From assembly GCF_988242995.1 (NCBI RefSeq), contig NZ_OZ547043.1: a DNA stretch of 64,000 bases; one strand, given 5' to 3'. Below are positions 8,965 through 60,975 of the stretch, piece by piece; within the stretch, counting starts at the first letter, position 1; each line of letters begins with the position of its first letter. Below the pieces are notes generated by a model. The model was not told where the DNA came from, ran no database searches, and was given only the letters and a program-made list of their open reading frames with translations. A program made the position numbers and the translations under genes.

Positions 8965-9058
8965 ATGCCCGATGCGCAGGTTTATCGGGCATGAGTTTTG
9001 TGCACAAATTATTAATCACTTGTAGGTCGGGTAAGGCGTTCACGCCGCATCCGGCAAG
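8965..9058. repeat. Palindromic unit plus REP element in efeB-phoH spacer
   Basis: ATGCCCGAT..ATCGGGCAT palindrome and GTAGGTCGGGTAAGGCGTTCACGCCGCATCCGGCA typical REP sequence. Confidence 0.6.
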
Positions 9059-48808: not shown

Positions 48809-49564
48809 ATGGATCACGCAATTTATACCGCGATGGGAGCAGCCAGCCAGACGCTGAATCAACAGGCGGTAACTGCCAGTAATCTGGCCAATGCCTCAAC
48901 GCCCGGTTTTCGCGCGCAGTTAAATGCCTTGCGCGCAGTGCCGGTGGAAGGGCTTTCACTGCCTACGCGCACGCTGGTAACGGCGTCAACGCCGGGTGCA
49001 GACATGACGCCCGGCAAGATGGATTACACCTCGCGCCCGCTGGACGTTGCGTTGCAGCAGGATGGCTGGCTGGCCGTGCAGACCGCTGACGGTAGCGAAG
49101 GGTATACGCGTAATGGCAGCATTCAGGTTGATCCCACCGGGCAACTGACAATTCAGGGACATCCGGTGATAGGCGAGGCTGGGCCAATTGCTGTGCCGGA
49201 AGGGGCGGAAATCACTATTGCTGCCGATGGCACAATCTCGGCGCTGAATCCGGGCGATCCGGCAAATACGGTTGCGCCAGTGGGGCGTCTGAAACTGGTG
49301 AAAGCCACGGGCAGCGAAGTGCAGCGCGGTGACGACGGCATTTTTCGTTTAAGCGCAGAAAGCCAGGCCACGCGTGGGCCTGTACTGCAGGCAGAGCCAA
49401 CCTTGCGTGTGATGTCGGGTGTTCTGGAAGGCAGTAACGTCAATGCCGTTGCGGCAATGAGCGACATGATTGCCAGCGCGCGGCGTTTTGAAATGCAGAT
49501 GAAGGTGATCAGCAGCGTCGATGATAACGCAGGCCGTGCCAACCAACTGCTGTCGATGAGTTAA
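48809..49564 (+). CDS. flgF: FlgF proximal rod protein
   Basis: 251 aa. Confidence 0.95.
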   Translation: MDHAIYTAMGAASQTLNQQAVTASNLANASTPGFRAQLNALRAVPVEGLSLPTRTLVTASTPGADMTPGKMDYTSRPLDVALQQDGWLAVQTADGSEGYTRNGSIQVDPTGQLTIQGHPVIGEAGPIAVPEGAEITIAADGTISALNPGDPANTVAPVGRLKLVKATGSEVQRGDDGIFRLSAESQATRGPVLQAEPTLRVMSGVLEGSNVNAVAAMSDMIASARRFEMQMKVISSVDDNAGRANQLLSMS

Positions 49565-49607
49565 TTAATCGATTGATGACATTGCAATAAAAGCGCGCGG
49601 ACTGTTC

Positions 49608-49642
49608 CCTCGCCCCTTTGGGGAGAGGTTAGGGTGAGGGGA
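49608..49642. repeat. GC-rich palindromic intergenic repeat in flgF-flgG spacer
   Basis: CCCTCGCCCCTTTGGGGAGAGGTTAGGGTGAGGGG; resembles a recurrent E. coli intergenic repeat class (family name not verified). Confidence 0.4.
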
Positions 49643-49682
49643 AATGCGCACCGCCGCGTGCTTCTGCTCTGCTTGTCACTAA

Positions 49683-50483
<801 letters not shown>

Positions 50484-50535
50484 GGCATAACCGGTGGCAG
50501 ATTCACCGGTTTACTGATTTTTGAAGATGATAGCC

Positions 50536-51234
50536 ATGCAAAAAAACGCTGCGCATACTTATGCCATTTCCAGCTTGTTGGTGCTTTCACTAACCGGCTG
50601 CGCCTGGATACCCTCCACGCCGCTGGTACAGGGGGCGACCAGTGCACAACCGGTTCCCGGTCCGACGCCCGTCGCCAACGGTTCTATTTTCCAGTCTGCT
50701 CAGCCGATTAACTATGGCTATCAACCGTTGTTTGAAGATCGTCGACCACGCAATATTGGCGATACGCTGACCATCGTGTTGCAGGAGAACGTCAGCGCCA
50801 GCAAAAGCTCCTCTGCGAATGCCAGCCGTGACGGTAAAACTAATTTTGGCTTTGATACTGTGCCGCGCTATTTGCAGGGGCTGTTTGGTAACGCTCGTGC
50901 CGATGTCGAAGCCTCCGGTGGTAACACGTTCAACGGAAAGGGCGGGGCCAATGCCAGCAATACCTTTAGCGGCACGTTGACGGTGACGGTTGACCAGGTA
51001 CTGGTCAACGGCAACCTGCATGTGGTGGGTGAAAAACAGATCGCCATTAATCAGGGTACCGAATTTATTCGCTTCTCTGGTGTAGTTAATCCACGCACTA
51101 TCAGCGGCAGCAATACCGTACCGTCTACTCAGGTGGCGGATGCGCGCATTGAATACGTAGGCAATGGCTACATTAACGAAGCGCAAAATATGGGCTGGTT
51201 GCAGCGTTTCTTCCTCAACCTGTCACCAATGTAA
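50536..51234 (+). CDS. flgH: FlgH L-ring lipoprotein
   Basis: 232 aa from ATG 50536 ([22 protein letters not shown]). Confidence 0.93.
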
Positions 51235-60902: not shown

Positions 60903-60975
60903 GCCTGATAAGGCGTTTACGCCGCATCAGGCTGCCAGCACCGATTGCCGGATGCGACGTAAACGCATCCGGCGC
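60903..60975. repeat. Two REP elements between rluC and yceF
   Basis: GCCTGATAAGGCGTTTACGCCGCATCAGGC and TGCCGGATGCGACGTAAACGCATCCGGCGC. Confidence 0.6.

Follow-up and report, generated by a model that had tools for sequence, protein, structure and literature searches.

In the window, which is the whole stretch of 64,000 nucleotides analysed here, a short GC-rich palindrome lies between two flagellar genes, in a spacer limited as follows:

48809-49564, plus strand: flgF coding sequence, from its open reading frame and from the RefSeq annotation of the 100%-identical strain 1190 and other genomes; stop codon TAA at 49562-49564
49565-49700, plus strand: flgF-flgG spacer of 136 nt, from the open reading frame limits and from comparison with the Citrobacter spacer
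49701-50483, plus strand: flgG coding sequence, an open reading frame with its ATG at 49701, and RefSeq annotation

The names flgF and flgG come from the RefSeq annotation of the 100%-identical E. coli strain 1190, and thousands of genomes carry them likewise. The earlier note on this DNA had described the spacer as 136 nt long and, apart from the palindrome, ordinary; the length holds, and the spacer stands out against its short flg neighbours, flgD-flgE (24 nt) and flgE-flgF (19 nt). No feature is annotated beneath the palindrome in the flgF-flgG spacer of the RefSeq genomes, and a small open reading frame or sRNA within the 136 nt was not found, either among open reading frames of at least 40 amino acids or in the annotation. 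Downstream of flgG, the flgH open reading frame starts with TTG at 50521 and offers an alternative in-frame ATG at 50536 (MQKNAAH...), giving a flgG-flgH spacer of 37 or 52 nt.

The palindrome is the 35-mer CCCTCGCCCCTTTGGGGAGAGGTTAGGGTGAGGGG, present once in the 64-kb window, on the plus strand at 49607-49641. The earlier note had seen it correctly and placed it at 49608-49642, one base too far to the right. Its nested inverted repeats pair CCCC (49613-49616) with GGGG (49620-23) and CCCTC (49607-11) with GAGGG (49636-40), again as described there. A search for uninterrupted inverted repeats with a 6-nt seed does not list these arms, because each uninterrupted arm is shorter than the seed; their pairing is recovered by folding. 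Is the 35-mer a chance palindrome in a unique spacer? Its single copy in the 64-kb window could be taken that way. However, shuffling the window 100 times yields no match to it, it lies one edit from published copies of a known repeat, and it recurs at a median of 14 places per E. coli genome across 5425 genomes. The sequence exceeds chance, and the chance reading, to which we give practically no credence, is refuted.

The counts come from a genome-wide search in which a 51-nt query centred on the 35-mer matched a median of 14 places per genome (maximum 29) in 5425 of 5426 complete E. coli genomes, with 17 places in strain 1190; a query made from the intact allele gave a median of 5 megablast places per genome. 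The repeat is not unique, and the recurrent class of E. coli intergenic repeats suspected in the earlier note can be named: multi-copy and one edit from published copies, it is BoxC, also known as PIT or TMECO. TMECO is the name used by Holder et al. (2015, PMC4666352), who give BoxC and PIT as earlier names and CCCTCNCCC-N3-6-GGGNGAGGG-N3-GGGNGAGGG as the consensus. They count 23 strict copies in K-12; over 56 strains their total is 823, or about 14.7 per genome, with which our median of 14 agrees. The name PIT goes back to Maher and co-workers (2000, as cited in PMC4666352), and BoxC has been catalogued as a repeat of 56 bp with 32 copies (PMC2267715). A literature search under the name TMECO returned Holder et al. 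only.

The window 35-mer stands at edit distance 1 from the K-12 'type A mm' copies nos 7, 11 and 15 (CCCTCGCCCCTTTGGGGAGAGGGTTAGGGTGAGGGG), the single edit against this 36-mer being the loss of one G from the middle block, and 12 of the 23 K-12 copies lie within an edit distance of 2. The repeat unit extends beyond the 35-mer: alignment with 10 K-12 copies reveals a shared left arm of about 20 nt (consensus AAAAACGnGCnCGGACGGTC; AAAAGCGCGCGGACTGTT in the window) and a short shared right arm, GAA(AA), which fit the 56-bp BoxC unit of PMC2267715. The unit thus measures about 56-60 bp, and the window copy spans approximately 49586-49651, with the following parts:

49586-49606, plus strand: BoxC left arm AATAAAAGCGCGCGGACTGTT (family consensus AAAAACGnGCnCGGACGGTC), from the alignment with 10 K-12 copies
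49607-49615, plus strand: C block CCCTCGCCC, block 1 of the triplex motif
49616-49620, plus strand: loop 1, CTTTG
49621-49628, plus strand: G block 2, GGGAGAGG, truncated by deletion of one G relative to the intact GGGAGAGGG
49629-49631, plus strand: loop 2, TTA, the 'type A' mark in Holder et al.
49632-49640, plus strand: G block 3, GGGTGAGGG, predicted to pair fully with the C block in RNA, including one G-U pair
49641-49651, plus strand: BoxC right arm GAAATGCGCAC, from the alignment with K-12 copies; only GAA(AA) is clearly conserved family-wide

In its three-block sequence, its TTA second loop ('type A') and its G mismatch ('mm'), the window copy resembles the published family, as it does in its conserved left arm of about 20 nt, its multiple copies, its strain-variable locus and its intergenic position, here between the flgF stop and the flgG start. 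It differs by the missing G of the middle block (GGGAGAGG). Its placement inside an operon is a minority case for which K-12 offers the precedents pstA-pstB and yihS-yihR; a literature search for experiments on the pstA-pstB BoxC copy found nothing relevant. In O157:H7 the same flgF-flgG spacer holds an intact 36-mer, and other strains also carry intact orthologues. Because of these orthologous copies and the shared arms, an origin from BoxC is little in doubt, and on sequence grounds the palindrome is a slightly damaged type A copy of BoxC (PIT, TMECO), a degenerate member by descent.

The locus appears to have been catalogued already, without gene names. In O157:H7 Sakai the intact 36-mer between flgF and flgG lies at 1493882-1493917 of NC_002695.2, and TMECO no. 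27 in Table S8 of Holder et al. is given at 1493741-1493776 of an older Sakai record (PMC4666352). As no. 27 is the only Table S8 copy between 0.71 and 2.96 Mb, the two very probably correspond. Both the repeat family and the type of element are known, and the presence of a copy here is in itself an ordinary finding.

The lost G has consequences for the assignment of the copy. The strict TMECO pattern finds no match anywhere in the window, because the middle block counts 8 nt after the loss, while the orthologous copies in O157, CP52E, NT1N25 and PapRG all match it. The window copy is therefore not a strict TMECO and, by sequence, corresponds to the 'TMECO mutated' class of Holder et al. (PMC4666352). 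The G-quadruplex motif (four runs of at least 3 G, loops of 1-7 nt) is likewise without a match in the window spacer and present in the intact alleles, as GGGGAGAGGGTTAGGGTGAGGGG, so that the same lost G accounts for the failure of both the strict triplex consensus and the G-quadruplex motif. Altogether, 1942-1943 genomes have BoxC at flgF-flgG and form a decay series: intact copies (O157, CP52E, NT1N25, PapRG), the window type, which differs by the missing G alone (25 genomes at ≥99% identity), the L003-type, in which C>T, C>A and G>T are added to the deletion (611 genomes, likewise at ≥99%), and one 154-nt hybrid in strain HH97. The L003-type substitutions all keep the RNA pairing, C>U standing opposite G and C>A pairing with G>U; this could reflect selection on the hairpin or, equally, templated mutation in a quasi-palindrome.

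The spacer of HH97 (NZ_CP116409.1, 60-213) is unique. In place of the BoxC left arm it has AGGCTAAGCGCCGGGCGGGCTATGGGGG, its CTATGGGGGC is similar to the K-12 allele described below, and its third G block is changed to GGGATGAGGGG. Such an allele may have arisen by recombination or represent an intermediate, or else the G-rich stretch may have been misassembled.

How did a repeat come to lie between flgF and flgG? In 73 of 78 flg loci, drawn from divergent Escherichia and from other Enterobacterales in a set that does not include Salmonella, E. fergusonii, E. marmotae, E. ruysiae or Shigella, the flgF-flgG spacer measures only 8-39 nt. Several Citrobacter species have a 13-nt spacer, TACAGGACATTTT, which recurs unchanged as the final 13 nt of the window spacer. 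Read from these alignments, the long spacer is derived, through an Escherichia-specific insertion of 123-158 nt placed right after the flgF stop; relative to the Citrobacter 13 nt, the insertion in the window corresponds to the first 123 nt of the spacer, 49565-49687. The strict TMECO pattern is absent from the outgroup flg loci. Within E. coli the insertion exists in two main forms, a BoxC allele in 1942-1943 genomes (about 36%) and a BIME allele in about 3480 (about 64%), K-12 among them. The earlier note had suggested looking for the repeat in other flgF-flgG spacers: about 36% of E. coli have it there, and about 64% of E. coli and most of the other Enterobacterales examined do not.

The two alleles share their outer flanks, namely about 17 nt ending in ATGACA on the left and TTGTCACTAATCCAC on the right, and differ in an inner block of 91 nt in the window and about 126 nt in K-12. 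The parts outside the BoxC unit are:

49571-49581, plus strand: left flank GATTGATGACA, common to the BoxC and BIME alleles, from alignments and folds; 5' arm of a predicted outer stem
49582-49672, plus strand: allele-specific block of 91 nt, in whose place about 64% of E. coli genomes have a REP/BIME-pair block of about 126 nt
49654-49663, plus strand: CCGCGTGCTT, predicted partner of AAGCGCGCGG at 49591-49600 in a second-level stem of the BoxC allele only
49674-49684, plus strand: right flank TGTCACTAATC, common to both alleles; 3' arm of the predicted outer stem
49688-49700, plus strand: TACAGGACATTTT, the ancestral 13-nt spacer with the flgG Shine-Dalgarno AGGA at 49691-49694, from the Citrobacter comparison and folds

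The K-12 inner block recurs at least 40 times per genome and contains canonical REP palindromes, which identifies it, from its sequence, as a BIME (a REP pair). Since the RefSeq features of MG1655 include no annotated repeat at flgF-flgG, this identity is drawn from the copy number and from matches to the other REPs of the window. E. albertii and the divergent E. coli SCPM-O-B-8794 have a BIME-type spacer as well. Because the BIME form is shared with E. albertii it is probably the older one, and the BIME filling would be ancestral in Escherichia, with BoxC a later replacement. When a synthetic empty site was used as the query in E. coli, the 12 best listed matches, among which the ranking contained ties, were all two-piece, with spans of 337 or 371 nt.

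The shared flanks GATTGATGACA (49571-49581) and TGTCACTAATC (49674-49684) form imperfect inverted repeats, and in the folds of every allele they pair to enclose the whole insertion. This arrangement suggests, on the strength of the predicted folds, that a palindromic unit was inserted first and had its interior exchanged afterwards. A MITE-like mobile element would have terminal inverted repeats and a target-site duplication. On direct reading, the flg site shows no such duplication. In the family at large, 10 of 12 BoxC copies show a copy-specific outer stem beyond the core in their minimum free energy folds. RNAalifold on the 12 copies recovered the invariant core only, with no consensus outer pairs and no covariation, and for this reason the copy-specific stems are not claimed as a feature of the family. 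An Rfam 15 scan at a permissive E-value returned only chance-level eukaryotic families (E ≥0.46, scores far below gathering).

The two fillings resemble each other in kind. Like BoxC, REP and BIME elements are short, GC-rich, palindromic intergenic repeats with predicted mRNA hairpins, and in about 64% of E. coli genomes and in E. albertii a pair of them occupies exactly the same position in this spacer. They differ in sequence, which is unrelated to BoxC, and in abundance, with at least 40 places per genome for REP against about 14 for BoxC. The possibility that the window palindrome is a REP was also considered and ruled out, since the REP pattern (GCCGGATG...CATCCGGC, up to 3 mismatches) has no match in the window spacer. 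That pattern matches the window only at 9026-9055 and 60903-60932, where REP-like palindromes, GTCGGGTAAGGCGTTCACGCCGCATCCGGC and GCCTGATAAGGCGTTTACGCCGCATCAGGC, are found. For REP, effects on mRNA stability are documented, and a transposase family (RAYT) is dedicated to it; to our knowledge, neither an effect on mRNA stability nor a RAYT-like transposase has been documented for BoxC. In K-12, BoxC copies nos 15, 19 and 23 lie within about 30-60 nt of a REP (frlR-yhfS, pstA-pstB and near gntP), and BoxC and REP often share intergenic regions, as they alternate at flgF-flgG.

Outside these two families, the same junction has received other sequences. In Enterobacter sp. ENT03 the spacer measures 140 nt (1061-1200 of the extracted locus) and is an ERIC/IRU-like repeat, with matches of about 86% identity at a median of 13 places in each E. 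coli genome; by sequence comparison, a third repeat family has here inserted independently at the flgF-flgG junction. ERIC/IRU, too, is an enterobacterial intergenic palindromic repeat that fills this spacer in ENT03; its unit of about 127 bp is different, unrelated in sequence and absent from the window spacer. Enterobacteriaceae bacterium RIT691 and Rouxiella aceris have spacers of 55 and 72 nt, upstream of position 1201 of the extracted loci, and the 55-nt spacer of RIT691 contains a perfect hairpin, AGAAGGGAAAAACGCGTTTTTCCCTTCT. E. albertii NBRC 107761 has a 152-nt spacer of BIME type in which the second REP is shortened. Its flgF carries an in-frame TAG at about 788-790 of the locus where E. 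coli has ACG (...LKLVKA*GSEVQ...), and from the sequence this flgF looks like a pseudogene.

As RNA, the 35-mer is predicted to fold at -19.2 kcal/mol (z -2.2) and the 51-mer at -21.0 kcal/mol (z -1.5); folded as DNA, the palindrome reaches -7.1 kcal/mol. The sense strand gives the more stable hairpin, -19.2 kcal/mol against -14.1 for the antisense. The earlier note would have given up its reading for a sequence unique in the genome and without stable structure; the repeat is multi-copy, and folding does predict a stable hairpin of about -19 kcal/mol. Its predicted stability is only modestly above that of shuffles of the same composition, because letters from one C-rich and two G-rich blocks pair well in any order. 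For the spacer as a whole, all alleles outdo their shuffles (z -2.8 to -4.6). The insert is strongly folded in all Escherichia alleles (z -2.1 to -4.6), and in every predicted fold a common outer stem closes it and the flgG Shine-Dalgarno remains unpaired.

A GC-rich hairpin between two genes might be an intrinsic terminator or an attenuator, or the spacer might hold an internal promoter for flgG. The hairpin, however, is not followed by a U-tract, the next bases being GAAAUGCGC (GAAATGCGC), and scans of 49300-49900 returned no terminator-like and no sigma-70-like sites. Further evidence comes from the follow-up work of Maher and co-workers, which, in the part relayed by PMC4666352, describes PIT elements as inactive both as promoters and as terminators, as leaving RNA polymerase and reverse transcriptase unaffected and as having no effect in vivo; in vitro they blocked DNA polymerase. 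A role in starting or ending transcription is accordingly very improbable.

The earlier note had proposed that the hairpin could stabilise the mRNA or be a site of its processing, and in this way set the flgF:flgG ratio. In such a reading, it would form a barrier to 3'-exonucleases or a processing site, uncouple the stability of flgBCDEF from that of flgG and what follows, and so tune FlgF:FlgG as REP does in some operons. The mRNA-stabilising effect of REP hairpins is well established, and several features of the junction are consistent with the proposal: a stable RNA hairpin is predicted on the sense strand, the whole spacer beats its shuffles in all alleles, the alternative allele carries REP hairpins, and the L003-type substitutions keep the pairing. 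The stoichiometry of the rod also agrees, with 5 FlgF and 24 FlgG, an approximately 5-fold excess of FlgG for which Salmonella is the reference (PMC11673145). Against this, 73 of 78 related flg loci lack the insertion, either of two unrelated repeats can fill the site within E. coli, and the copy is decaying in the strains that have the BoxC allele. The single compensatory pair could also have arisen by template switching in a quasi-palindrome, and PIT/BoxC, to the extent that PMC4666352 relays the work, was inactive as a terminator and as a promoter and left RNA polymerase unaffected. The proposal thus finds no support in a repeat that about 64% of E. coli lack, that decays where it is present and in whose place relatives have short spacers, and we regard regulation of this kind as unlikely. 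A passive effect of the hairpin on the stability of the flg mRNA is possible, given the predicted folds.

A broader form of the idea would place selection on the junction rather than on BoxC. It is conceivable that Escherichia has been selected for a strongly folded RNA insert, be it BIME or BoxC, whose outer stem frees the flgG Shine-Dalgarno, so that independent initiation and a barrier at the 3' end replace the 13-nt spacer and help to achieve the roughly 5-fold FlgG excess; the tight 13-nt spacer of relatives would possibly be translationally coupled. We hold this to be more doubtful still than the tuning of the ratio by the hairpin. If it were true, BoxC would be a functional analogue of REP on mRNA.

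At the DNA level, the G-rich strand might transiently adopt an intrastrand triplex, a hairpin or a G-quadruplex that stalls replication or attracts repair, making the spacer a rearrangement hotspot and perhaps driving the replacement of BIME by BoxC. E. coli has at least five alleles of this single spacer (BIME in two lengths, 170-171 nt and 152 nt; BoxC, either intact or with the G deleted; and the 154-nt HH97 hybrid), and polymerase stops, triplex formation in vitro and a higher variability of TMECO loci than of controls have been reported (PMC4666352). The triplex concerns the isolated G-rich strand, for which CD and NMR on intact type A and B oligonucleotides indicate an intrastrand purine triplex; it was not found in duplex DNA, nor was it detected by DMS footprinting in vivo, and the variability concerns the sequence around TMECO loci (PMC4666352). 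Variability between close strains, a trait of the family, is also found here, in the BoxC and BIME alleles, the three BoxC subtypes and the one hybrid. Yet REP/BIME loci are variable too, and the source of instability need not be BoxC. Moreover, the window copy lacks the strict three-block register and the G-quadruplex motif, so its activity should be weaker; one triplet lost and a shifted register should likewise weaken its triplex. We therefore offer a DNA-level activity as a tentative possibility only; it would explain the variability, would give the element no cellular function and is compatible with a passenger.

The explanation that we favour, with considerable confidence, is that the palindrome is a degenerate BoxC copy within an Escherichia-specific insertion and most likely a neutral or selfish passenger, with no evidence that it sets the FlgF:FlgG ratio. 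A first event would have introduced 123-158 nt between the flgF stop and the ancestral 13-nt ribosome-binding spacer of flgG. In some E. coli, about 36% of the complete genomes, a BoxC unit would then have taken the place of the core of the insertion, and the copy in the window subsequently lost one G from its middle block, as seen against the intact alleles. The structure of the flgB operon is well established. BoxC would be transcribed together with it and appear in the mRNA as a hairpin of about -19 kcal/mol, in which the C block is predicted to pair with either G block. It would be tolerated because the ribosome-binding site of flgG is untouched, the Shine-Dalgarno being intact and predicted to be unpaired. 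The several alleles of this single spacer fit the reported variability of TMECO loci. Three points weigh against a passenger: every Escherichia allele keeps a strongly structured insert at this junction in the predicted folds, which could reflect selection rather than history, the three L003-type substitutions all keep the RNA pairing, and the approximately 5-fold excess of FlgG makes differential expression at the junction plausible.

Modestly new are the BIME/BoxC dimorphism of the junction and its 13-nt ancestral state. For annotation, it is a matter of hygiene to label the motif as a decayed copy of the BoxC/PIT/TMECO repeat instead of a flagellar regulatory element, and the flgF-flgG spacer could be used as a simple typing marker. 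For the biology of these repeats, a single operon junction provides a natural experiment, with 13 nt in Citrobacter and relatives, BIME in about 64% of E. coli and BoxC, intact and decayed, in about 36%. These three states offer a clean way to test what repeats do to the downstream gene of an operon.
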